The notes under the pieces were generated by a model. That model did not search any database. It was not told where the DNA came from and was given only the letters and a program-made list of their open reading frames with translations. 64,000 nucleotides of DNA from Vairimorpha necatrix. Its lineage: Eukaryota. The position numbers were made by a program, and so were the translations under genes. Each line of letters starts with the position of its first letter. Position 1 is the stretch's first letter. Of this stretch, positions 1 to 64,000 are shown one piece after another. The stretch spans positions 806,001-870,000 of the forward strand of contig CP142733.1 in NCBI GenBank assembly GCA_036630325.1, written 5' to 3'.

Positions 1-1446
1 GATGAGACAGAAATGCCTGTATATTTCATTTCAAGAAAACTAAATCCAGCTGAAATCAATTACACAGTAACCGAAAAAGAATGCCTGGCGATAATATGGA
101 GCATATCTCAATTCCGTATTTATCTTACAAATACTTTTACCATTAAAACTGATCATCAAGCACTCAAATGGCTGCTAAGTTATAAAGAAAGTACAGGAAG
201 ACTAATGAGATGGATTCTCACATTGGAAAATTACTCCTATGACATCGAATACATAAAAGGAAAAGATAACGTTGTAGCTGACGGATTGACAAGATTTGTT
301 CACACAGTAAAATATAAAAATGAACGAGAACTATCGCCCGAGAGTCGTAAAGAACTTATACTGAAATGCCACGAAGAATGTGGACATGGAAGCACTCTCC
401 CAACATACACTCTAACTCTTGACCAAGCCAAATGGAAAGGCATGTATGAGGAAATAAAACAAGTGATTGGAAAGTGTCAGGTATGTTTAAAATTCAATTC
501 AAAAAGAATAACAAGAGAACACCACAGGATTCGCCTAAAAGATCCATTCTCACTGGTAGGAATTGATATGGTAGGACCTCTACCTAAGTCCGAGAATGGT
601 AAAATATATCTAATAGTCGCCACAGATTACTTGACAAGATGGTGCGAAGCGAAAGCCGTAAGAAATAAGACTTCTAAAACAGTGGCTAAATTTATATTCG
701 AGGAGATTATATGTAGACATGGCCCACCCAATGAAATTCTTTCAGATAGGGGACTTGAATTTTTAAACAGTACGGTCAAAGAACTATGTAGAATATTTAA
801 AATAAGAAAATCTTTTACATCAGCCTACCACCCACAATGTAATGGCACGGTAGAAAGAACCAATCAATCACTAGTGGCCAAATTGGCAAAGATCATAAAT
901 GGAAGGTGGAAAGACTGGGACGAATACGTCGAACTGGCTCTATACGCGTACAGAATTTCTCCCAGAAAAATAACAGGACTCTCTCCCTTTGAGCTATTAT
1001 ATGGACGAAAACCTATGACATGGGAACATCCCGAAGAAGAAACCTTAGATTTGGAAGATAATTTTTTAATATTTGAAAGATTAAAGCATACTCGGGATAT
1101 TATGTTACAAGCCGAGAGAGAGGCCAGAGAAGGTGAAATAAAGGATGTTAAAGAACAGACACTTCAGATAGGAGACGTGGTGCTAAGAAGAAAACCACTC
1201 ATCAAGATTAAAAATAAATTGGATAGTAAGTTCGAGGGCCCATACACGATAACTAAGGTGGGTAAGAAAGGGGCATATGAAATAATAAGCCCTAATAATG
1301 AAGTGTTCTCGGTGAATTGGAAAGACCTAAAGAAGATGGACTTTGAACTAGAAACCTGGGAGCCGATAAAGAAAGGGGGAGTGTCAGGGGACAGATCTCC
1401 GGTGATACTAAGATTACCCTGGAGATCTGAGAATACCATGCTGTAA
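1..1446 (+). CDS. Ty3/Gypsy pol C-terminal part (RNase H + integrase), runs in from the window edge
   Basis: RNase H motifs NYTVTEKECLAI, TDHQAL, NVVADGLTR; integrase HEECGH...CQVC zinc finger, GIDMVGP, SDRGLEF, YHPQCNGTVER, KFEGPY. The stop codon lies inside the 3' LTR. Confidence 0.95.
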   Translation, partial: DETEMPVYFISRKLNPAEINYTVTEKECLAIIWSISQFRIYLTNTFTIKTDHQALKWLLSYKESTGRLMRWILTLENYSYDIEYIKGKDNVVADGLTRFVHTVKYKNERELSPESRKELILKCHEECGHGSTLPTYTLTLDQAKWKGMYEEIKQVIGKCQVCLKFNSKRITREHHRIRLKDPFSLVGIDMVGPLPKSENGKIYLIVATDYLTRWCEAKAVRNKTSKTVAKFIFEEIICRHGPPNEILSDRGLEFLNSTVKELCRIFKIRKSFTSAYHPQCNGTVERTNQSLVAKLAKIINGRWKDWDEYVELALYAYRISPRKITGLSPFELLYGRKPMTWEHPEEETLDLEDNFLIFERLKHTRDIMLQAEREAREGEIKDVKEQTLQIGDVVLRRKPLIKIKNKLDSKFEGPYTITKVGKKGAYEIISPNNEVFSVNWKDLKKMDFELETWEPIKKGGVSGDRSPVILRLPWRSENTML

Positions 1447-6960: not shown

Positions 6961-7743
6961 TTTTTTTTTCTTGCAAGTAAGAGGTAGGGAGAAACCTTAC
7001 ATAGGACCAAGGGGATTTGGGTGTGATCCTCATCCAACTGGTACTGTGAGATTCTTACTCACTAAAACTACCTCCATACAACTTGCCGGTGCAGCAAACT
7101 CCGCCGTATCCTTTGGACAACAGTCCAAAGAATAATTTTCATTTATAACATAATTTGCGTATGATAATCTCTCAGCAAATACACATATCAGGCATAGATA
7201 TCTCTCCATGTGAGAGACAATTCGTACTAATTTAATGGTCCCTACAATCACCCGTATTGCACACACGGCTCTTTACACGACCACATCACCAGCACTCCAT
7301 TTTCATTGGACTGCGTTGACCACCAGTTTTCCATTAGTTTTGACCACCGTGTTACAGAATTTTGTAGAATAGGTTCAACGAGACCTTCTATTGTCCTACT
7401 TCTTCTAGTCTCTAAGTTGGCTCTAGGACCCCACTCTAGAGTGCATCAGCCATGGGCTCCAACTAGGCCGTACCCATTAGATACTTTTATGTATCATTAA
7501 GCCACCAAAGGGCGATACTATTTTTTTTTGGCTTTGAGGTGCGTTTCTACACTAGATGCTAATCCCCTCGTGGCTGGACTCACACAAGTTTTATTGATTC
7601 AACTTAATAATTATCGTGGACATTTTCATCATCTGAGGTGTTCCAACTGCATCATAGAAAGTAGAAACAATTAGGGAGCCTTGGGAATCGAACCCAGCCA
7701 TTGCTTAATGGAAGCATTGCCTTTTCACTAGGCTAAGGGCTCC
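6961..7743 (-). mobile_element. tRNA-derived SINE, copy 1 (full length)
   Basis: Cloverleaf head at 7674-7743 (acceptor GGAGCC/GGCTCC, D stem GCCT/AGGC, B box GGTTCGATTCC); A9 tail; 15-bp TSD TTA(C/T)TATATTACAAG at 6946-6960 and 7744-7758; second copy at 45208-45995. Confidence 0.85.
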
Positions 7744-32632: not shown

Positions 32633-33656
32633 GGCTAAAGTAAGCATTAGCTACAAAAAATCGATATAGGGTTTTTTTGTTTTTTTTTGCCCCTTTTTTT
32701 TAAAAATGGAGGAAAGAATTCGGACAAGAGAAGAATTGGAGATCATGTATAATGATCTAATAATAAAGAAACAAAATAAAAAATGTAGCGTCTGTAATCA
32801 AAAAATGAAGCAAAGAGGGGAGCAAAGGAGTCTCATAAGGTGTCCATGGAGTTCATGTAAAAACACAATTTCAATTTGGAATGAGACTTTCTTTCAGGAG
32901 TCTAGGATAAATCACATTACAATATTACAAATACTAAATTTATGGATTTTAGGTTATTCACGTAAGTCCATTTCTCAAGTTTTAGGTTGTACTAAATCTT
33001 CTATATCTTCCATTCTAAAAAAGTTAAAACACATGAGTCTTTATGATAAGTATTTATCTAGTATAGGGACTATTGGAGGCGATAATACTATAGTGGAAAT
33101 TGATGAGACTAAGATTGGGAAGAATAAATACAATAGGGGGAAGTTAGTAAAAGGATTTTGGTGTTTTGGAATGGTTGAACGTACCATCCAACGTAGAATC
33201 ATAGTAGTATATATTAAGAAAAGAAACAAAAGGACACTTACTGAACTTCTTTTAAAATATGTAAGTAGAAGCAGTATTATATATAGCGATATGTGGAGAG
33301 CGTATCATTCTTTAAATACAATATTTAACCAACATCATATGGTTAATCATACATTACATTTTAGAGATCCGAATACAGGAGTACATACCAATACCATAGA
33401 AGGTAATTGGAGATCTTTAAAACAATCTATACCAAATAGAAATAGATCATCAAATAGCGCTAAACTTTATTTATTTAGATATATGATCCAAAGAAACTCT
33501 ACAACTTCAGTGTTTGAAGATTTATTAAAATATTTATTCTAGTTTTTATTTTTGTTCCTTCCTCATCATTTTCTTTCCTCCATTTTTAAAAAAAAGGGGC
33601 AAAAAAAAACAAAAAAACCCTATATCGATTTTTTGTAGCTAAAGCTTACTTCAGCC
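32633..33656 (+). mobile_element. Intact Merlin DNA transposon (1024 bp)
   Basis: 86-bp TIRs (32633-32718 and 33571-33656, two mismatches) starting GGCT; 8-bp TSD AAAATGAG on both sides. Confidence 0.95.
32706..33542 (+). CDS. Merlin (IS1016/IS1595-like) DDE transposase
   Basis: N-terminal CxxC..CxxxxC; VEIDETKIGKNKYNRG, IYSDMWRAY, HHMVNH, VHTNTIEGNW. Confidence 0.95.
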   Translation: MEERIRTREELEIMYNDLIIKKQNKKCSVCNQKMKQRGEQRSLIRCPWSSCKNTISIWNETFFQESRINHITILQILNLWILGYSRKSISQVLGCTKSSISSILKKLKHMSLYDKYLSSIGTIGGDNTIVEIDETKIGKNKYNRGKLVKGFWCFGMVERTIQRRIIVVYIKKRNKRTLTELLLKYVSRSSIIYSDMWRAYHSLNTIFNQHHMVNHTLHFRDPNTGVHTNTIEGNWRSLKQSIPNRNRSSNSAKLYLFRYMIQRNSTTSVFEDLLKYLF

Positions 33657-36223: not shown

Positions 36224-39200
36224 TGTTATTTTTTTTACATGAGAGTTACTAGCCCAACATCTCCTCCACAGAACGGTTAGTCTTACTCCCTACAATTGCT
36301 TTGAGATCATAATGTCTCTTTTCAATAATTTTCTTATCCTCGGTATATACTAGGTAGGAATCAAACCACAAATTTCTTCAATATCGCCTTTTCTTTCGAA
36401 TCTACCACTATCCTGTTTGCTAAAATTACAAAATTTTCTCTCTTAGCAATCCTTAGAGCTAGCCTACTAAAAACTTTTTTTTGCCATTTTAATAAATTTC
36501 TTGGCAAAATCACGAGAGTTTTCCTACTTTACCTCTACATCAATATTTCCTTCGCAACAGCCTCTAAGGGAGTACACTTAAGTCGACTATGATACGTACT
36601 ATTATAAAACACCGTTGTCTTATTCACCGCAGCTTCAACGTAATTAGTACGCTGCTTAAACACGCCTTCCCGTATAGTTCTTATCGCCCCTTAGACCCAG
36701 CCGTTGCTTCTATGCTAACAAGCTTATGCTTGATCTTGTTTATAAAACACCACTTCCTAAAGTCTTCGCCTAAAAACTCTTTGGCGTTATCGCTTACAAT
36801 CACTTCGGGGATACCTCCTTCTTAAGCCAAGTCTCAAAAGCACTAATAATCATATTTGTACTTTTATCTTTTACAACACTGGCATACAAATATCGAGGAA
36901 ACATTCAATTATTATCAACCCCGATTTTCTAGGTTCAACAATCTCCATGATATCGGATAACAATTTTCTCGCCTTTAAACTCGATAAAACAAATTCAACA
37001 CCATCCTTATTCTTTATATTTATTATCTGACATATCATATGGCTCTCATTCCCTATATTTACTAATCTCACATTTCCGGCCAATAATAATGTTTCTTGAG
37101 GTCATAATCTGTTTCTTTACCCCCTCTGTGGTTTAACCATGTATGTCCTTTACTATTTTTGATCTCGCTTTTAATTTCGGGATTTCCATATGTAATCCCT
37201 TATCAAATTCCCAAAACTCTTTATTATCTTTGATCACTGTATGTTTTTCAATTTTTTCTTTCATTTCTGCAGTAACTTTTTCTTTAATCTATTATTCATT
37301 TTTATCTTTCTCATCCTGAAATTGTCTACTTTAAGCATTCGCATCTGCCATATTTTACCTTTTACATATTGTACGGTGAAGTCATACTCCTGTATCCTTT
37401 TAATTGTCGATTTACTCTGTTATTATTAAATAAAATGTTTGTTCCTGATTTCTTTTAAGGCTTAATGGTTCGTCATTAATTCGAATTTGCATTCTCTCAA
37501 TTTGTATGAAAAATTTTCTATGCCCCATACAACCGCTAACATTTCGTTTTCCGTGTAACATATCTTCAATCTGTTGGAGTCAATTTTTTCGAGCCCATTG
37601 TATAACATCCACTTTCCTTTTTTTATTCTTCTGTAAAAGCACTGCTTCCAGGCCAGATCCGACGCATTCGTACGTAACCTAAATTCCTTACGGTAGATCG
37701 GTATCTTAAGAGTCTGTAAATTGCTGAACTTATATTTTACTATACTAAATTCTTCTTCCATTATGATTAACAACTTCTATTTTTTACTCGTTTTATGTGC
37801 CTCAAATAAGTTTAATGTACTCGTATCAAAATTGTTAATAAATTTTCTAATACAGCCTGCTAATCCCAAAAATCCTTGCAACTCTTTTATGCATACGGCC
37901 GCCTATATAGCGCTTCATTTCTTGTTAACTCTGAAGAATTTTATATACTACCAACTATTGACACACCAATAAATAAACTTAACTTATGCTATGTTATTTT
38001 TTTGTAGGATTACCTTTAGACATGCTTTTGAAACTTTTTTATTACACCCAAAAATAACTCATCGTATCGCTCACCATCTTTAGCGTGGATAACTATATTG
38101 TCTAGGTATATTTCAACACCTTTTCCTCTAAATTCTTCTAAAATCCCATTCGTTGTTTTCTGCATTACCTGTGATGCGTTCATAAATCCCATCACCATGC
38201 TGATCCACTCGTACACATTCGCATCAAATAAAAAAATGTTTTATATTTGTGTTTCTATTCAATAGCTATGTATTAAAAAACTTCTTTAAGATCAATCACA
38301 CTAAATATCGATGATCCTTGAGTCGCTTGAAAAATGTCTCTTATAGTAGGTAACTCATAAGGGTCTAATTCAACCAAATCATTCAACCCCATAAGATTGC
38401 TTTTAATTCGTATCCCACCATAATCAGGCGTCTCAATCGTTCGTATCGGATCTATCCGATCTAAATTAGATCTCCTTATCACAACTCTGTTTTCTAAATT
38501 TATAAGTATCTCCTCGGCTCTTCTTTTGCACTTTTAAAAAATATTAAACCTCTTCTCAATACTTTTGCTCCATTAAGTGTCCTTATAAAACATCTTAACT
38601 TTGTCCCAATGTTATCTTCCCTCCGATTGTTTTAAACGTCTGCAGACTAAAAATTTTCTCTAATTGTAAAAACTATTATCTCTTTAAGTATTAAGTAAGA
38701 ACTCATTACACTTTTTAATCACATACTCATTTATCTTGACTACATAATTAAACTTCTTGTTACTATTATCAATTATAATGGCTGCTCATATCCTTCATGT
38801 CTAGCAATCTCCTTGTATTTTATCTTCCATTCAAGTTTGGTATTCGTAATTTATAGGCATTCATTATCCTAAATTACCTTATTTACCACATTATTTTACA
38901 AATACTAAAACAATAAATTTTTATTCTGATTTTCCCCTTCTTACTAATATGAACGATTCATACAGCTACTAGCTATATTTTCTACTATTCTACATACGAA
39001 ACATAGACTTAATTCTCTTCTTTGATATTGATAATGTTTTTCTGTATTGCCACTCTTCTGATCAGTTCCTCTTATATCTCATTTCTGAAGTTTTTTTTGA
39101 ACACACGCTAACTATTATAATTTTTTCTTCTTTATTTTTTTTTTCTCTTTGTCATTTTTAACTAACTTTTCATTTTCAAAATTTATTTCATTCCAATTTT

Positions 39201-39432
39201 TTTAAATTTCCTGAATTTTCTTCAATGATCAGATCCTGTAGTTCGACATTTGTTTGTCATAATGCCTGTTTTAAAAACTTCTGCAATCTTAATTCATTCT
39301 AATCATTGCAGCTATTCTTTTGGTCTCTTTATAAAGCTTTATGGCCTTCTGACCACGGGTCTCGCTTGTTGCCCCATTTACTCTTGTGTTCGCCATGTTA
39401 GTCTTTTATTCATGAGGGATTCCAACTCAACA
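36224..39432 (-). mobile_element. Full-length but decayed compact Gypsy element (3.2 kb) with 36/37-bp LTRs
   Basis: 5' LTR 39396-39432 and 3' LTR 36224-36259 (both TGTT...AACA); PPT GGAGGAGA; flanks ATAG/TTAG; frameshifted RT (SNLMGLNDLVELDPYEL, YLDNIVIHA), RNase H and integrase (IPEVIVSDNAKEF). Confidence 0.85.
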
Positions 39433-39508
39433 TTAGTGAATTTCCGTGTTTATGAAGCAAAAAATCTTACTGATGTAAAAAGAGTAAATTTAATCAAAAA
39501 TATTAGTA

Positions 39509-40102
39509 CATGACCGTTTGGAACCCGCTTTGGAAATTTAAAAGACCCCCTTTCAAAATTGGCAAAAGCAAATTTTGTTGAGGCAGATGAGCTTTGTAGT
39601 GATTAAATGAATTTAAACATTGAAAAAACGAATGTAAATATTTGAAACATTTGATTCTGAGTTGGCGTGCGCCTTGCTCGTTTCTAAACTAGTAAAAATA
39701 CTGTTTTTTTCTTAGGTAATAAAAGATAATGAATAACCTGTATCTATGATCACTAATAATGGGTAGCATATGAGGTCACATTAGACATGCAAATAGATAA
39801 AGCACAAGACTGTGAATCACTCCATCATTGCTGTATACCCTGGCGATTCTGAGACACAATACCAAATAATTTAAATGGATTTTGCTCATTATTAAATTAT
39901 ATATTCGATCTAGACATGGAATAAACCAGGACGAACACTATGAGTACGTTTTAAAGAACCTCGGGGCTTTCCAAATCCTCAAAAATCGACGTATAAATCG
40001 TATTCTTTCATTATTTAAAATAAATCGTTATTTTTCTTTTTTTAAGATTTTTTCCTTTTTTAAAGCGGATTCATTTTCCTAAGCGGGATCACGACGGTCC
40101 TG
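39509..40102. mobile_element. Non-autonomous TIR element, uninterrupted copy
   Basis: TA|CATGACCGTTTGGAACCCGC ... GCGGGATCACGACGGTCCTG|TA; body homologous to 27761-28287. Confidence 0.75.
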
Positions 40103-45089: not shown

Positions 45090-45207
45090 TGTATTTATTT
45101 TCTATAATAGGGCTCAAAAATATAAGAATATATAACATCCCCCCTCCAAGACGGTTAGTCTCCTACGTCATCATCAACCCTAAGCAGATTTTTTTAGTCA
45201 TAGTGCC
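45090..45207 (-). mobile_element. Gypsy 3' end remnant: integrase tail, PPT and 48-bp LTR
   Basis: RHYD codons, GACTAACCGT motif, PPT GGAGGGGGGA, then TGTTATATATTCTTATATTTTTGAGCCCTATTATAGAAAATAAATACA, matching the LTR at 62218-62266. Confidence 0.8.
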
Positions 45208-45995
45208 TTTTTTTTTCTTGGAAGTAAGAGGTAGGGAGAAACCTTACATAGGGATCAGAGAGATTTGGGTATGAACTTCATCCAACTGGTACTGTATGAT
45301 TCTTAGTCACTAAAACTCCCTCCATACAACTTGCCGGTGCAGCAAGCTCCGCCGTATCCATTGGACTTTGGCTCCAGGAGAACATTTTCCATTTATACCT
45401 CAAATCGCGTCCAGAGTGACCTCACAGCAAATATACATATCAGGCATAGATATCTCTCCCTGTGAGAGACATCATCGTAGTGACTCAAAGGTCCCTACAA
45501 TCATCTGTATTGCACACATGGCTCCTTACACGACCACATCACCAGCCCTCCATTTTTATTGGACTGCGTTGACCACCAGTTTTCCATTAGTTTCGGCCAC
45601 CGTGTTACAGAATTTTGTAGAATAGGTTCCACGAGACCTTCTATTGTCCTACTTCTTCTAGTCTCTAAGTTAGTTCTAGGACCCCACTCTAGAGTGCATC
45701 ATTCATGGGTCGCAACTAGGCCGTACCCGTTAGATACTTTTATGTAACATTAAGTCACAAAAGGGTGGTACTACTTTTTGGCTTTGAGGTGCGTTTCTAC
45801 ATTATACGCTAATCCCCTTGTGGATTGACATACATAAGTTTCATTAAATTAACTTAATGATTATCGTGGACATTTTAATCATCTGAGTTGTTTCAACTGC
45901 ATCTTCCAAAAAGAATCAATTTTGGTGCCCCTGGGAATCGAACCCAGCCATTGCTCAATGGAAGCATTGCATTCTACCACTGTGCTAAGGGCGTC
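45208..45995 (-). mobile_element. tRNA-derived SINE, copy 2
   Basis: Head GCCCTTAGCACAGTGGTAGAATGC...CTGGGTTCGATTCCCAGGGGCACCA (A and B boxes); A9 tail; colinear with 6961-7743. Confidence 0.85.
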
Positions 45996-47437: not shown

Positions 47438-47532
47438 GGCTCTCGAGGACATCATACTTTTTAATTTTCTAGCATTTAAAATTACACCTAACATACATTT
47501 GCATTTTTACTCTTTAATGTGTAAATACAGGG

Positions 47533-47664
47533 GTTTGCATTTATATATTCCCCTGTTTGCGTTTCTATATTCCCCCGTTTGCATTTCTATATTCCCATGT
47601 TTGCATATCTATATTCCCATGTTTGCATATCTATATTCCCATGTTTGCATTACTATATTCCCAT
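47533..47664. repeat. Six tandem 22-bp units GTTTGCATTTCTATATTCCCAT
   Basis: Counted directly; two inverted units at 48713-48756. Confidence 0.9.
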
Positions 47665-47790
47665 AAAAATAAGAAATTTCAATAATTATAAAAAATATTT
47701 ATTAAATAAAATCTTCTCTTGCTCTTGCCTTTTCTATCCAGCCTATCATATTTCTGTAAAACGCAGGACACTCACGGTTATAATCCAAAC

Positions 47791-48686: not shown

Positions 48687-49377
48687 TAAGGGGATTAAAA
48701 AATTCAAATTTTTATGGGAATATAGAAATGCAAACAGGGGAATATAGAAATGCAAAACCCCGTAACAGGGTTTTTTATCGAGAAGGTTCAAATTAAAAAT
48801 TTAGATAACCTACATAGTAGAATTTTATAACATGCCTTGGGATGATTCTTTCTAAATTTATTATTATATTATTCTTACACATGGCTTTTTTTTTATATTT
48901 GTAAAATAAAAAATGCAAAAACAAAATTGTGCTTCAATATAAATTTATATATAAAAATTAATGTAAACTGCTTCAACTCTTTAAAATACATTGTATTTAA
49001 TATTAAATAAATGTATTGTGTCGAAAAATAGAAACATTGGTATTATTAAATAAAATATAAAAATTAGGCACAATCTTAATTTGAGTTTTATTAGTTTTTG
49101 ATGCGTGTTGGTAAAAAGCATTGAAAATGAAATTATGTATGAAGCGTATGTTAATAATATAGTTAAATTCAATTTATCATAATTAAAATTTTTATGTGTT
49201 AAGAAAAATCAAAAAGAGAAGTGATTTGAAACTTAAAATCATAAAAAAAATAAAATAATTAAGTGATGTGAATTTCATAAGCTTTTTTTTGATCACATTA
49301 AATTACTCTTTTTCTTAAAAAAATTTTATAAAAAGATGACATTTATTTTGACTTTTAAACTAATTTTTTTATACCTT

Positions 49378-58140: not shown

Positions 58141-59601
58141 ATGATAGCTTTAAAAATTTTCTATTATTTTTATCTAGTACAATCTACAAAATACTTTGTT
58201 AAACTTAACATTGTCTTAAACGAACAGATTAAAAAAAAGCAATACTATACTTTCGACACCACTAAAGGAATTTACAATGATATTTTAATGTATGAAGATG
58301 TTATGTCCTACATATCTTCTACAAACAAAACAAAAGATGAGAATATTATGAGAGCTATAGAAAAAATCAAATCAGAATTGTTTGACAAAGATAATATAGA
58401 TGATCTAAATAATGTTCTGATTTATGAAAAACATGATAACGATGACTACAATAAAATTATAGATGGATTAATAGAATATAATTACAAAGTTAAAAACAAA
58501 GAAAATGTTTTTTCTTATGATATTATTGTTGAAAAGGATAGTCCTACTTATAAATTTATTTTTGATAACAATATTACTGCTGAAAACGTTAAATTCCCAA
58601 AACTAAGTCGTCCATTTTTATACAATTTTGTCTTTAAGCTAGACACAATTTTCTATTTCACAGGAATCAATTTAAAAGATCTCGGGATTGAAGAAATTTT
58701 TAATGTGCATTTGGAAAAGCAATTTGCGTATAAAAACTACAATGATAGATTTCTTAATCTTACTCTTCAAAATTTTAATTTTTTTGAGCTCAATGAAGTA
58801 TATGGATTTAAACAATATGAAAATACTGGTATACATGAAAAGCGCGACTTGAATGATTTAGACCTTAAATATCATGACTTCGTAATTTTACCTAGTGAAA
58901 ATATTATAAAATATAAAAATACTACAAAGACAATAGTATTTTCATATAATAAAGAATTTCTAAATATCTATGACGATACGAAAAAAAATATAGTCATTGA
59001 TGAAGTAATATATGGAGATTTGTTGAGATTAGTAAAATTCTATCAAAAAAATCAAAGCAACAAAAACGAAATTAATCTATTGATAAGATATATTTCAAAG
59101 AATTACCCACTTAAATCTCTTATAGAAAGTATCTATGCGAACAAATACACTGCAACTTATATATTTTTTGAAGAAATTCGTACCATTTCTAAAGTATTAA
59201 GTAGAACTGATTTGAACTATATCATAAACAATATTGATATTTTAAAAAAAGCATCTTCGTGCATTTCAGGATTACATACAAAATCAAATCAAATAGCAGA
59301 TAACTTTATAGATTTTATTCTTTATGAAGATAATAATATTAATTACATGATAAAAATATGTTTAATTATAGAATTTGAAAAACATATCAACAATAAGAAC
59401 CTTGATTTAAGAATATTTAAAACAATAAAAAATATTTCGAAATTGTTTGAAAGTACTAATAAAGATGAAGTTGATATAGTATTATTATTTGAAGAGTTAT
59501 TAAATAAAAAAGACGTAATTTGTGAGGCTATTAAAAGCACGTGGAATGATATTTTTAAAGCTTTTTTATATTTAAAAAACAAGAAGGAAGAAATTAATTA
59601 A
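58141..59601 (+). CDS. Large putative secreted family member 3 (more diverged)
   Basis: CCC-ATG at 58141; KLNIVLN..I.K..Y.T, I.LKDLGIE, MIKICL..E.EK.IN, IFKTIK.I.KL match members 1 and 2. Confidence 0.8.
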   Translation: MIALKIFYYFYLVQSTKYFVKLNIVLNEQIKKKQYYTFDTTKGIYNDILMYEDVMSYISSTNKTKDENIMRAIEKIKSELFDKDNIDDLNNVLIYEKHDNDDYNKIIDGLIEYNYKVKNKENVFSYDIIVEKDSPTYKFIFDNNITAENVKFPKLSRPFLYNFVFKLDTIFYFTGINLKDLGIEEIFNVHLEKQFAYKNYNDRFLNLTLQNFNFFELNEVYGFKQYENTGIHEKRDLNDLDLKYHDFVILPSENIIKYKNTTKTIVFSYNKEFLNIYDDTKKNIVIDEVIYGDLLRLVKFYQKNQSNKNEINLLIRYISKNYPLKSLIESIYANKYTATYIFFEEIRTISKVLSRTDLNYIINNIDILKKASSCISGLHTKSNQIADNFIDFILYEDNNINYMIKICLIIEFEKHINNKNLDLRIFKTIKNISKLFESTNKDEVDIVLLFEELLNKKDVICEAIKSTWNDIFKAFLYLKNKKEEIN

Positions 59602-59849
59602 ATTAAATTTTTAATCGACATATTTTATACAAGAAATTACATTATTTTTTTGTTTTTCCAATTAAAATATGTTAAAAATATCATAAATAAATCAGTGGAT
59701 TTTTTATGAGAAAATGCCGGAAACGTTTTTTAATATCATTTTAGTTAGTTTTTACAAGTACAATCAATATAGAATATAACTATCATGGGTTAAAAACAAA
59801 TTTTTTTCATTTATTTTTTTTTATATTTTAAACTTCTGTAGTTTTTTTT

Positions 59850-62050
59850 CTCCGGATGAGATTCCACCGAGCTATACAAGGTACTACTTAAACCTAGTTT
59901 AGTAGATAAAAAGCTACCTCTGTTCTTAGTGAACGAGTTCAACAGAATACTAACAGGAGACCGCCCTCCTGTTAGCTGGAGTGCTGCTGACATGATTTGC
60001 CTCCATAAAAAAGAGGATGTGTCAGATCTCAACAACTATAGAGGAATTGCGCTAATTAACACAATAAGCAAAATTTACTTAAAAATAGTAAACGACAGAC
60101 TTACACAGTTTGTTGAAGAAAAGAACATTTTTTCATCTTTCCAAGCCGGATTTAGAGCAGGAGAAGAATGTATGAATAAGATCGCAACCTTGCTGGAGGT
60201 GGTTAAAAGAAGAGAATTTCGAAGTCAACAAACATTTCTATGTTTTTTTTACTTTGAAAAAACTTACGACAATGTTAGCCATGATCTACTATTTAATAAG
60301 CTAGAAAGGTATAGTATTCCAAGATATCTTATAAACACTTTGAAAGATATCTATGGAAATACTAAGATGAGAATCCATATAAACGGAGACACAAGTAGTG
60401 GATATCTCTACAAAAAAGGTGTGAGACAAGGGTGCCCCTGTTCTCCTACGCTGTTCAATCTATTCATAAATGATATTTTGGACGGCATAACAGGAGTGAG
60501 CGTTCCTCACTTAAATATAAGCCTGCCTGGACTGATGTTTGCAGATGACATCGTAGTTCTAGGCAATACTCTTGCTGATCTGTAACACAAAGTGTGTCGA
60601 ATCAGTAGATGGGCAGTTGAAAATCGTATGAAGATCAACTGTGACAAAAGTGGTATCTTAGTATGGGATGCCAGTAATATATCCGAGTCTGTAGATGTCG
60701 CTATCAGGACTGACTTTGGAAAAATCGGTGAAGTCGCCGAATACAGGTATTTGGGTGTTCTTATAAAAAGATCTACTTTAGAAGAACACTTAGTAAGAGA
60801 TGGAGCCTTCAGAGGCAAAAAAGCTTTATAAGTCTTGAAACCAAAGCTTCTAAATAAAATAATTAATATAGCTTTTAAAGGTATATTAATAAAAAATGTG
60901 CTATTTCCATCACTAATGTGCGGAAGTGAATTATGGGGGATGTCTAGTATAAGGTCTGGTGGGATCAATAGAATCCTAATAAAAGCGATCCGAATGATAT
61001 TTCGAACAAAAATAGTGCCATTAGATAGGATAATGGACGAACTCTGTATGAATAGAGTTCACATACAGGCGGCCCTAAGTAGATTTAGGGCATTAAGGAA
61101 GTGGAAACACAATAAAACCATTATCTCGGAATTTATTAATTAACCTTCGAGGGAAAAGAAAACAACGTGGAGTTTAAGGACTAGACGTTGGTGTAAGAGA
61201 TATATCGGGAACGATTATGAAAGCATTGCCTACATTATAGGCAAGAACAAGATTTTAGAGGTACTTAAGGCAAGGGGTTCCTACAACACCACCTTAGGTG
61301 CTCTAGTAGCAGATAAGTATGGAATCTGTGACTCGCAGATTAAGCACATACAATCAAAAGTAAACAACAGGCAGATCAGGAATTACACCAGGCTTCGGTG
61401 TAATTTAGTCAGATGGTCTTCTGCTTTGGCTAATGCCAACAAAATCCCTCCTTTTTATAGAACTCATTGTTTCCTATGTGAGGGAGAACGAGAAGACCTT
61501 GAACACTTCTTTTAGACTGTCCGACGCTCTCTAACACAAGATCTCTATATGAGAATTAAATATCTGAGTTGAGATCTTCAATTCAAACAAAAGAGAAGCT
61601 AGTTAAGATGATTATTAGTAACATCAATGGCATCAAAGCTTGTTTTGATAAAAGGAAGTCTCTACTTGTAAGAGTTAAATTCATAGACAAGATGGTTGTA
61701 CAACGATACATTGTTATACGAGAAAGGAAAGGCTTGTAAGCCAGAACAGATCTAGAGAAATCTAGAAGAAAAAAAAACACACTCTTACCTGGGGGAGGTA
61801 TGGCAAGCTGCTGGTGCCGTAGCATTTACGTTAAACTAGTTAGGTTTTTAACTGACGAGTGGGTCAGACGTGTTATTCTCTGAATACCCTGCTGAACGCA
61901 GGTAGGTCACAGACAGGAATGATTGTGGTTCTAATCCTAGTGGGATACTTTTTCTCCTTCGAGCAAGGCCTTTATAGTATGCTGGTTTAATCGCAAGTTA
62001 TTGGCTATTGAAGTTTTTATTTGCTGGGTGGCTTTTCTTTAATAACAATA
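59850..62050 (+). mobile_element. 5'-truncated LINE-type non-LTR retrotransposon (pseudogenised RT)
   Basis: YRGIAL, QAGFR, GVRQGCPCSPTLFN, MFADDI, YRYLG, C-terminal CFLC..EDLEHFF*DC; in-frame stops; TAATAACAATA tail; possible degenerate ~20-bp TSD AAA.TT.T.TAGTTTTTTTT. Confidence 0.88.
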
Positions 62051-62126
62051 AAAGTTTTTTAGTTTTTTTTTTGTTATTACCAATCTTGATATTTTTTTTT
62101 ACATGGTTTCATTTTATATTAATAAT

Positions 62127-62146
62127 GCGGGTTCCAAACGGGCATG
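62127..62146. repeat. Isolated end of the CATG-CCGTTTGGAACCCGC TIR family
   Basis: GCGGGTTCCAAACGGGCATG is the reverse complement of the TIR at 39509 (one mismatch). Confidence 0.65.
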
Positions 62147-62217
62147 CGTCTGCGTTTTTGTTTATATTAATTTTTTTGCAATTAAATGAATACAATTATG
62201 AAGATATTATTAATTTA

Positions 62218-62266
62218 TGTTATATATTCTTATATTTTTGATCCCCAATTATGATAAATAAATACA
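62218..62266 (+). mobile_element. 49-bp 5' LTR of a compact Gypsy element
   Basis: TGT...ACA ends; first 24 and last 11 nt identical to the PPT-adjacent LTR at 45090-45137, with no similarity outside; contains CCCC and AATAAA. Confidence 0.8.
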
Positions 62267-64000
62267 TGGGGGCGATACCGAATCGTGAGTTAACAAGTGT
62301 TGGCTGTAGTCAAGAGGCCAGAAGGTTATTAGAAGAGTTTAAGAGGATTGTTTATGGATTAGTATTGTCTGATTATGATTTTGAGAAAAATGTAAAGAAG
62401 GAGATTTTTGATCTTGGAACTGATGAGTTGAAAGAATTTATGGTTAAGAATATTAAGATTGGAGATCATTGGAAAGTTATGGAAATCAAATTAGAGGAAT
62501 TGGTTAAAGTACAGGAGGAAAAGGATATGAGATTACGGATGATTGAGGAGGTCACAAAGATGGTGGCAGAGGAGATTAGAAATATTAGTAGAGAGGAAAG
62601 AATATTTAAGAAGAGAAGAACAATGAGATGTTATAATTGTTCAAGAATGGGACATAGGAGTCAGATGTGTTATTATAGATATAGAAATGTTAAAAATAAA
62701 GACGAATGTGAGAGTATTAAAGAAGAAGGTAGCAGTAGCTGTGGTGAAAGGACTTATAGGAACACATGGGATGCTAAAAGACAAAAGAAACAAGAATGGA
62801 AGACAAGAAATAAAAGATGTTATGATGAGGTAGAAAAAAACGGTCTAACATTAGAAGACATGAGAAAGAGGTTTAGGAACGTTATAGACAACGAAGAAGA
62901 GAAAATAAGATATTGTAAAATTAAAAAATGCAGAATCAGAACTGAAGAAGGTAAGAAAGTTGTAAGGAAAGGTCAGCAGGTGCCACAAGCGCATAAAGAA
63001 GAGCTGAGAAAATATATTCAGAAGTTAGAGACAAGGAATGTCATAAGAAGATCGACGTCGGAATGGAGAAATCCGATTAAAGCTTTAATTAAGCCAGATG
63101 GAAGTATAAGACTGGTTAGCAATCTCATGGCATTAAATGATTTAGTGGAGAAAGACCCTTATGAATTAGTGAACATTAGAAATATCATAAGGAACACGCA
63201 AGGATCGAAGTTTTTCAGTGTTATAGACCTTAAAGAGGCTTTTTATGGAATCGAAATAGAAGAGCAAGACAAGCATAAGACTGCATTTGAGTATGATAAG
63301 ATAGTATATGAATGGAATAGTATGGTCATGGGGTTTAAAAACTCGCCTCAGATCATGCAGAGAATTATGAATAAGATTTTTGAAAAACATTTGGGTGGTA
63401 AAATAGAAGTATACATGGATGATATAGTGATTCATGCAAAGACTAGAAAAGAACATGATAAATTATTTGTAGAAGCGATGAAATTGTTAGAACGGAATAA
63501 TATGCGGATAAATTCAAAGAAAATTCAGTATTGCCAAAAGGAAGTCAAGTTATTGGGAGTTACATTAAACGGAGATGATATGATGCCGTCTGAAATCAAG
63601 AAAAACGAAGCACTAGAGTTTCCAACGCCGCAGAATGTGTCTGACATAAGAAGATTTTTAGGACTAAGTGGATGGTTTCGAGGATTTATTAAGAATTATG
63701 CGGAGAAGACATTATATATGACTGAAAGTTTGAAAGGTAAAAGTAAAGTATTGAATTGGACTGATGACTTAAATAAAGAATTCGAAAATATGAAGGAAAC
63801 GTTAAGAAGTATGAGTAAGTTGAATATTGTAAACTATGACAAGGAATTTTTATTAAGAACTGACGCGAGCAATATAGGAATGGGCGCAGTACTCATGCAG
63901 AAGAATGATAAAGAAGAGTGGGTGCCAGTACAATGGGCATCGAAGAAATTCACCCCGACGGAAACTAGATATGGTATAAGTGAAAAGGAAATGTATGCCA
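62266..64000 (+). CDS. Single open Gag-RT-RNase H ORF of a compact Gypsy (runs off the window; absent from the ORF track)
   Basis: Hand translation shows no stop: CYNCSRMGHRSQMC knuckle (62629-62670), SEWRNPI, IDLKEAFY, YMDD (63412-63423), RRFLGL, TDASN.GMGAVL, SEKEM. Confidence 0.92.
   Translation, partial: MGAIPNRELTSVGCSQEARRLLEEFKRIVYGLVLSDYDFEKNVKKEIFDLGTDELKEFMVKNIKIGDHWKVMEIKLEELVKVQEEKDMRLRMIEEVTKMVAEEIRNISREERIFKKRRTMRCYNCSRMGHRSQMCYYRYRNVKNKDECESIKEEGSSSCGERTYRNTWDAKRQKKQEWKTRNKRCYDEVEKNGLTLEDMRKRFRNVIDNEEEKIRYCKIKKCRIRTEEGKKVVRKGQQVPQAHKEELRKYIQKLETRNVIRRSTSEWRNPIKALIKPDGSIRLVSNLMALNDLVEKDPYELVNIRNIIRNTQGSKFFSVIDLKEAFYGIEIEEQDKHKTAFEYDKIVYEWNSMVMGFKNSPQIMQRIMNKIFEKHLGGKIEVYMDDIVIHAKTRKEHDKLFVEAMKLLERNNMRINSKKIQYCQKEVKLLGVTLNGDDMMPSEIKKNEALEFPTPQNVSDIRRFLGLSGWFRGFIKNYAEKTLYMTESLKGKSKVLNWTDDLNKEFENMKETLRSMSKLNIVNYDKEFLLRTDASNIGMGAVLMQKNDKEEWVPVQWASKKFTPTETRYGISEKEMYA

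Follow-up and report, generated by a model that had tools for sequence, protein, structure and literature searches.

We analysed a 64,000-nucleotide stretch of the Vairimorpha necatrix genome (assembly GCA_036630325.1, contig CP142733.1, positions 806,001 to 870,000; hereafter the window, whose own numbering is used throughout), which ends within a retrotransposon that we call element A. We consider, with a probability of about 0.7, that element A is a very compact, protease-less Ty3/gypsy element with a single open reading frame (ORF), whose start codon lies at the end of the long terminal repeat (LTR), whose primer-binding site (PBS) occupies a translated position, and which has no untranslated leader. 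The junction of element A reads ...AAATACA on the LTR side, followed directly by TGGGGGCGATACCG on the internal side (62260-62279 on the forward strand, ...AAATACA followed by TGGGGGCGATACC), and translation from the ATG that spans the junction begins MGAIPNRELTSVGCSQEARRLLEEFKRI... On the minus strand, the junction of a second element, B, reads ...GACTAACA followed by TGGCGAACACAAG, with the ATG at 39396-39394 and a frame, MANTRVNGATSETRGQKAIKLYKETKRI, that meets a stop after 35 codons. The original prediction, made from the letters of the window, had claimed a junction ATG at 62266 and at 39396 (minus), opening translations in the same register; both triplets are read directly from the sequence, and the two peptides align without gaps. 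The features of element A are the following.

62218-62266 (+): 5' LTR, 49 bp, TG...CA, delimited by contig breaks and by likeness to another LTR in the window (copy C)
62239-62241 (+): in-frame TGA within the LTR, read from the sequence, closing the gag frame upstream
62243-62246 (+): CCCC, a host-type promoter motif, from the sequence
62251-62253 (+): in-frame ATG within the LTR, adding MINKY if used; possible first AUG of the element
62257-62262 (+): AATAAA hexamer, from the sequence, 4 nt before the LTR end; putative poly(A) role
62266-62268 (+): junction ATG, formed by the last base of the LTR and the TG of the internal region
62267-62284 (+): candidate PBS, from its position directly after the LTR; starts TGG and is translated (M)GAIPN
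62266-64000 (+): gag-pol polyprotein frame, 578 codons, still open at the window end
62629-62670 (+): CCHC zinc knuckle of Gag, amino acids 122-135
63091-63567 (+): reverse transcriptase domain RVT_1, amino acids 276-434, Pfam E = 6.6e-32
63757-63999 (+): RNase H domain RT_RNaseH_2, amino acids 498-578, cut by the window end, Pfam E = 1.1e-22

Because the in-frame TGA at 62239-62241 shuts the frame upstream, the only ATG starts possible are those at 62251 and 62266, the first of which is the start given by the automatic ORF listing. The frame begins, then, either where the LTR ends or 15 nt before that point, within the LTR, and there is no room for a 5' leader, in agreement with the original prediction. 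The order of the pol domains, RVT_1 followed by RT_RNaseH_2 (the window stops before the integrase region), and the family of the reverse transcriptase place the element with gypsy and not with copia. For an aspartic protease, Pfam returned 0 families at E <= 0.001 across the 578 amino acids, and no D[ST]G motif occurs in residues 1-300 of the polyprotein; since no protease was found, we regard element A as a reduced form of Ty3/gypsy. The stretch between the CCHC knuckle and the reverse transcriptase (62671-63090, +) likewise shows no aspartic protease by Pfam or by D[ST]G. The closest named protein is a 'pol polyprotein [Vairimorpha necatrix]', with 89% identity over 93 residues, and further relatives come from Nosema granulosis.

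The junction triplet alone means little, because an LTR ending in CA followed by a PBS starting with TGG makes an ATG automatically; its behaviour across the family is more informative. Gag residues 1-150, compared with 1.84 billion representative proteins, gave 14 matches, seven of which cover the N-terminus. A profile search gave seven matches and added P0016 and P0017; P0015, also among its matches, begins internally and was left out of the comparison. A protein search confined to lengths of 317-1012 amino acids gave 0 matches, and another gave one. The resulting N-terminal alignment comprises 11 sequences: A, B and nine relatives. Met occupies the junction column in 10 of the 11 N-termini, so that a junction ATG opening the frame is not a product of chance, and four relatives (P0002, P0005, P0007 and P0008) begin exactly at this Met. 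An in-frame Met is also present five codons upstream in A, P0001, P0003, P0012 and P0016, in three different peptides, and three codons upstream in P0017. Residues 2-58 align without frame breaks in eight sequences of 30-44% identity, plus P0001 (79%), with Q16, Y30, K44 and L55 invariant, and the next in-frame ATG of element A after 62266 is codon 59. Because conservation at the protein level extends over these residues, and element A has no further in-frame ATG between 62266 and codon 59, a start further downstream is excluded. Judged by the aligned proteins, the junction ATG is the start across the family. The original prediction had singled out keeping of this ATG by other family members as the point on which it could fail, and the family has kept it.

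Related DNA outside the window was less informative. In three metagenome loci (L001-L003, 47-55% identity) the 5' end is chimeric or shifted in frame and offers no clean junction, and a pattern scan of viral contigs for related DNA produced 31 pattern matches, 0 of them confirmed. One of the three loci, a metagenome contig of another organism with 37% G+C (L002:600-1120, minus), carries a Gag-like remnant whose family is more distant. This remnant begins ...TTTCACA followed by TGGCACCC, with an ATG spanning the CA/TGG junction, and its frame shifts after about 20 codons.

The position of the junction depends on the limits of the LTRs, for which element B and a third sequence, copy C, provide the comparisons.

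39396-39432 (-): 5' LTR of element B, 37 bp, 27 of 37 aligned columns identical to its own 3' LTR
39382-39396 (-): junction ATG of element B (39396-39394) and candidate PBS, translated MANTR
37534-38595 (-): reverse transcriptase remnants of element B, four pieces of 30-60% identity found by tblastn with the A polyprotein
36224-36267 (-): purine tract GGAGGAGA (36267-36260) and 3' LTR (36259-36224) of element B
45090-45147 (-): purine tract GGAGGGGGGA (45147-45138) and 48-bp 3' LTR (45137-45090) of an A-like element, copy C

Element B, about 3.2 kb long, is a dead relative, as shown by the reverse transcriptase remnants at 38595-37534. It has both of its terminal repeats, TG...CA, and its 3' LTR ends ...TAACA, supporting the LTR end; element A has its 5' LTR inside the window. 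Copy C (45137-45090, minus) is identical to element A in 45 of 50 aligned columns, in a likeness that ends at ACA. It is the sole other copy in the window of the sequence upstream of the element A frame, and the likeness is confined to 62217-62267. The start of the LTR was tested with contigs of the public runs X1 and X2 aligned to 61000-64000: three X1 and two X2 contigs match from 62217 on, preceded by sequences that are unrelated and mutually different, and contig depth is maximal in the bin 62212-62312. Copy C, these contig breaks and the purine tracts abutting the 3' LTRs together set LTR A at 62218-62266 and LTR B at 39432-39396. The original prediction had thus placed the LTR end correctly, as copy C and the 3' LTR of B confirm, and had not seen how short the LTRs are, the repeats measuring 49 and 37 bp. 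A long LTR starting at about 61791 was considered and rejected, given the narrow likeness to copy C and the divergence of the contigs of both runs before 62217.

The 49 bp of LTR A hold an AT-rich stretch, the CCC motif, the optional in-frame ATG and the AATAAA. A polypurine tract adjoins the 3' LTR both in element B (GGAGGAGA) and in copy C (GGAGGGGGGA), preceded in each case by the motif GACTAACCGT, and one of the loose contig ends before 62217, from X2, is purine-rich; plus-strand priming therefore looks canonical. Ahead of copy C (45090-45170, minus), one frame continues through the purine tract and on into the 3' LTR, where the TGA of the LTR ends it; this TGA is also the triplet by which the gag frame is closed upstream in the 5' LTR (62239). 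From this sequence, pol may end inside the 3' LTR; the upstream part of copy C is degraded, and the 3' end of element A lies beyond the window.

Several observations fit a translated PBS just after the LTR. TGG follows the LTR directly in both A and B, as required for pairing with the CCA end of a tRNA, and the frame opening at 62266 or at 62251 reads across 62267-62284, so the PBS position is inside the gag frame. The N-termini form two classes of equal length, MGA[I/T] (eight sequences) and MANTR (two, B and P0017), that align gap-free to column 39. M1, G2 and A3 are invariant in all eight members of the first class; in the second, B and P0017 share five out of five residues of MANTR and only nine of the next 23. 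Mean pairwise identity within the first class, with the near copy P0001 omitted, is 0.60 for residues 1-10, compared with 0.19-0.54 in the seven later 10-residue windows. An AlphaFold2 model of residues 1-150 has a mean predicted local distance difference test score (pLDDT) of 80, which falls to 46 over residues 1-10; its first helix begins at residue 15. A tail that is predicted to be disordered, that is the best conserved and that exists in two discrete versions looks like the translation of a PBS used with two primer tRNAs. We thus propose these codons as a candidate translated PBS, leaning on the established retroviral mechanism, in which the primer itself serves as template for the PBS copy in the plus strand. 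After LTR A, the first seven bases also look like those of PBSs that use tRNA-Pro, a resemblance of use as a lead only.

The original prediction had left two options for the PBS, that it was coding or that it was absent. The first holds in that the PBS position is translated; absence, or replacement of tRNA priming, is unsupported, as TGG and the purine tracts are kept. The self-priming of Tf1 type that it had also raised is not supported by comparison with shuffled sequences. The 20 post-LTR bases of element A have a longest Watson-Crick run of 5 nt with their own LTR, reached by 236 of 1000 shuffles, and in element B the longest run is 4 nt, reached by 757 of 1000.

In its strongest form, our proposal is that a single junction unites LTR terminus, tRNA PBS and Gag start codon. 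Gag would then begin with five or six residues that are the translated reverse complement of the 3' end of a host tRNA, rewritten from that tRNA in each cycle, and a switch of primer would be a switch of peptide, from MGAIPN to MANTR. R plus U5 would take up about 20 nt or less, with essentially no U5, and among autonomous LTR retrotransposons no more compressed 5' end would be known. We hold this proposal tentatively and rate it somewhat below an even chance. Several facts weigh against our overall reading of element A, or against the junction ATG as the first codon. The conservation is known only at the protein level, so a short N-terminal motif could be its cause. Rfam, run on the whole window at the gathering score, returned 0 families, and the two tRNA-Met calls made by ARAGORN have mismatched, poor stems. 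The better of these, with CCA added, pairs six anchored bases with the post-LTR bases of A, three of them being the obligatory TGG; the other pairs 3 nt anchored with the same bases. One relative, P0016, has Ser at the junction, starts five codons upstream and looks frame-shifted later. Finally, the ATG at 62251 is only 4 nt after the CCCC, and the junction ATG is 19 nt after it, outside the 0-16 nt range seen in 10 of the 15 other long ORFs.

This last point bears on which AUG comes first in element A. A CCC promoter motif has been described for microsporidia (PMC2803860, PMC10759460), and the second of these papers reports CCC or GGG ahead of 77% of the genes and 54% of the predicted transposons in V. 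necatrix. Within the window, 10 of 15 other long ORFs carry CCC 0-16 nt before their ATG, and because 62251 sits at this typical host distance from CCC, the junction ATG may be Met6 in element A. Translation of element A could thus start in the LTR (MINKY-MGA...), with the junction ATG as an internal Met and the PBS position still translated; the original prediction had offered 62251 as an alternative start, and this ATG is indeed in frame and may be the first AUG in A. Besides the usual host spacing, an in-frame ATG at -5 codons recurs in the family, as MINKY in A, P0001 and P0012, MTSTE in P0003 and MSSGY in P0016, the last of which lacks the junction Met altogether. Conversely, in four of the nine relatives (P0002, P0005, P0007 and P0008) the protein starts at MGA and no in-frame ATG is called further upstream, the LTR of copy C reads ATA where element A has the ATG of 62251, and the in-LTR ATG of element B is out of frame, its version in the 3' LTR being followed at once by TAA. 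On balance, we rate a start at 62251 in element A as not quite an even bet. We consider it very improbable, by contrast, that the junction frame is accidental and that the real start lies downstream, with the first ~170 nt forming a non-coding leader. All that speaks for this is the automatic formation of ATG by CA/TGG; it is opposed by the uninterrupted alignment of residues 2-58 among the eight divergent sequences and P0001, by the absence of another in-frame ATG before codon 59, and by the confident helices that the AlphaFold2 model predicts from residue 15.

A different reading of the conserved tails is that there is no tRNA PBS, that MGA and MANTR are protein features, for instance a Met-Gly lipidation signal as in retroviral Gag, and that priming takes place in some other way. 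It draws on the fact that conservation was measured on proteins only, and GAIPNR presumably fits the N-myristoylation pattern. However, the Gly would be internal in copies that start at -5 codons, the MANTR class is without Gly2, and three MGA members have Lys where the pattern wants a small residue. Likewise, ordinary priming would account for TGG next to the LTR and for the purine tracts, and the complementarity needed for self-priming is at chance level in A and B. We therefore see the protein-feature explanation as unlikely, and retain a translated PBS position at the LTR end as the reading of choice.

If the PBS is translated in this way, replication of element A might proceed as follows. 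Transcription would start just after the CCCC, by host rules, so that R plus U5 would amount to ~20 nt or less, and the RNA would be translated from its first AUG (62251 or 62266) almost without an untranslated region (UTR). A host tRNA would anneal to codons 1-5 or 1-6 and prime a strong-stop DNA of ~20 nt or less. In the 3' LTR, cleavage would probably take place at or beyond the LTR end, because AATAAA is only 4 nt from it, and this would leave essentially no U5. In retroviruses, the bases of the PBS are copied again from the primer in every replication cycle. Such re-copying would hold the first codons fixed; it would explain the two equal-length classes of N-terminal peptide, with MGAIPN-type and MANTR-type corresponding to two primers, and also why the tail is the best-conserved piece of Gag despite being predicted as unstructured. 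Packaging and dimerisation signals would then fall inside the coding sequence, as in Ty1. In a predicted fold of the 5' end of element A, computed without a control and from which we draw nothing, CCCC pairs with GGGGG.

Among known systems, Ty1 of Saccharomyces cerevisiae (Ty1/copia, Pseudoviridae) is close in working mode. Its LTRs are several hundred bases long, compared with the 49 bp of element A; it is primed by tRNA-iMet, keeps GAG and POL in separate frames and follows the domain order of copia, whereas element A has one frame, with reverse transcriptase followed by RNase H. The PBS position is inside the gag frame in both elements, the PBS of Ty1 having been localised in the GAG ORF (PMC4974528), and the 5' end of Ty1 RNA is described as combining signals for the start of translation, for packaging and for the start of reverse transcription (PMC5454406). 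Whereas the start codon of element A straddles the LTR end, R and U5 are described as forming a 5' UTR in Ty1 (PMC4974528). The Ty1-like layout concerns working mode and not family membership. By family, element A belongs with the microsporidia-specific Ty3/gypsy groups described by Parisot et al. 2014 (PMC4202319), which, as reported there, have a single polyprotein and no separate gag and pol, like element A. In the main text of that article, 'PBS' and 'primer' have 0 occurrences. A literature search confined to papers outside subscription found none that covers the PBS, or the start of gag, in LTR elements of microsporidia.

Other comparisons set element A further apart. Tf1 of Schizosaccharomyces pombe also has a single polyprotein frame, and it primes itself without a tRNA, about 11 bases of the RNA 5' end pairing with the PBS; the best pairing with the own LTR is here 5 nt (A) and 4 nt (B). 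As with the 18-nt tRNA PBS that follows U5 in retroviruses, TGG comes directly after an LTR ending in CA. Retroviruses differ, however, in having a long untranslated leader between PBS and gag, while the PBS position of element A is codons 1-6. Element A thus illustrates how little room an LTR retrotransposon may need at its 5' end: 49 bases accommodate a putative promoter, a start codon, a putative poly(A) hexamer and the LTR terminus, and the primer site apparently does double duty as codons. It also leads to a sharp prediction, namely that the host has two tRNAs with 3' ends complementary to the respective N-terminal coding motifs, and would offer a natural case, outside yeast Ty1, for the coexistence of packaging and dimerisation signals with coding sequence. 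Such families, pieces of which gene callers label 'hypothetical protein', will escape LTR finders that require a long LTR and a PBS outside coding sequence.

The rest of the window, which has 27% G+C, contains other mobile elements of Merlin, long interspersed nuclear element (LINE) and gypsy type. Just upstream of element A is a LINE-like element (58141-60585, +, and ~61430-61780), which has an RVT_1 ORF at 59992-60585, is rich in Cys and His towards its end (near 61470-61510) and carries a run of A near 61770. Three exact copies of the 15-mer GCGGGTTCCAAACGG are present, at 62127-62141 (+), 39528-39514 (-) and 27776-27762 (-), and the 15-mer closes a repeat of ~560 nt (40010-39473 versus 28287-27721, 77% identity); Rfam at E <= 1 on 39380-40100 gave nothing. 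LTR A begins 76 nt and LTR B 81 nt downstream of a copy of GCGGGTTCCAAACGG, in the same orientation, which may reflect a target-site preference or, with n = 2, chance.

The two tRNA-Met-like sequences called by ARAGORN, at 7674-7743 (-) and 45923-45995 (-), have C at position 33 in addition to their mismatched stems, and both fall short of the Rfam gathering score for tRNA. Each heads a repeat of ~740 nt (45950-45208 versus 7700-6961, 86% identity), and they may belong to a tRNA-derived repeat family. At the left end of the window (1-1446, +) lies the 3' part of another gypsy pol, with RNase H, integrase zinc domain and integrase core. About 30 nt past its end come the purine run GGAGGGAAA and then TGGTGATATTTTCCCGCC... 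(1477-1485), which may be another micro-LTR with a CCC motif. A Merlin-type transposon (32633-33656) has a DDE_Tnp_IS1595 ORF at 32706-33542 and 86-nt inverted repeats that are 98% complementary. Lastly, a tandem array at 47511-47686 is made of a 22-nt unit in six registered copies, with an inverted partial copy ~1.1 kb away, at 48699-48764.

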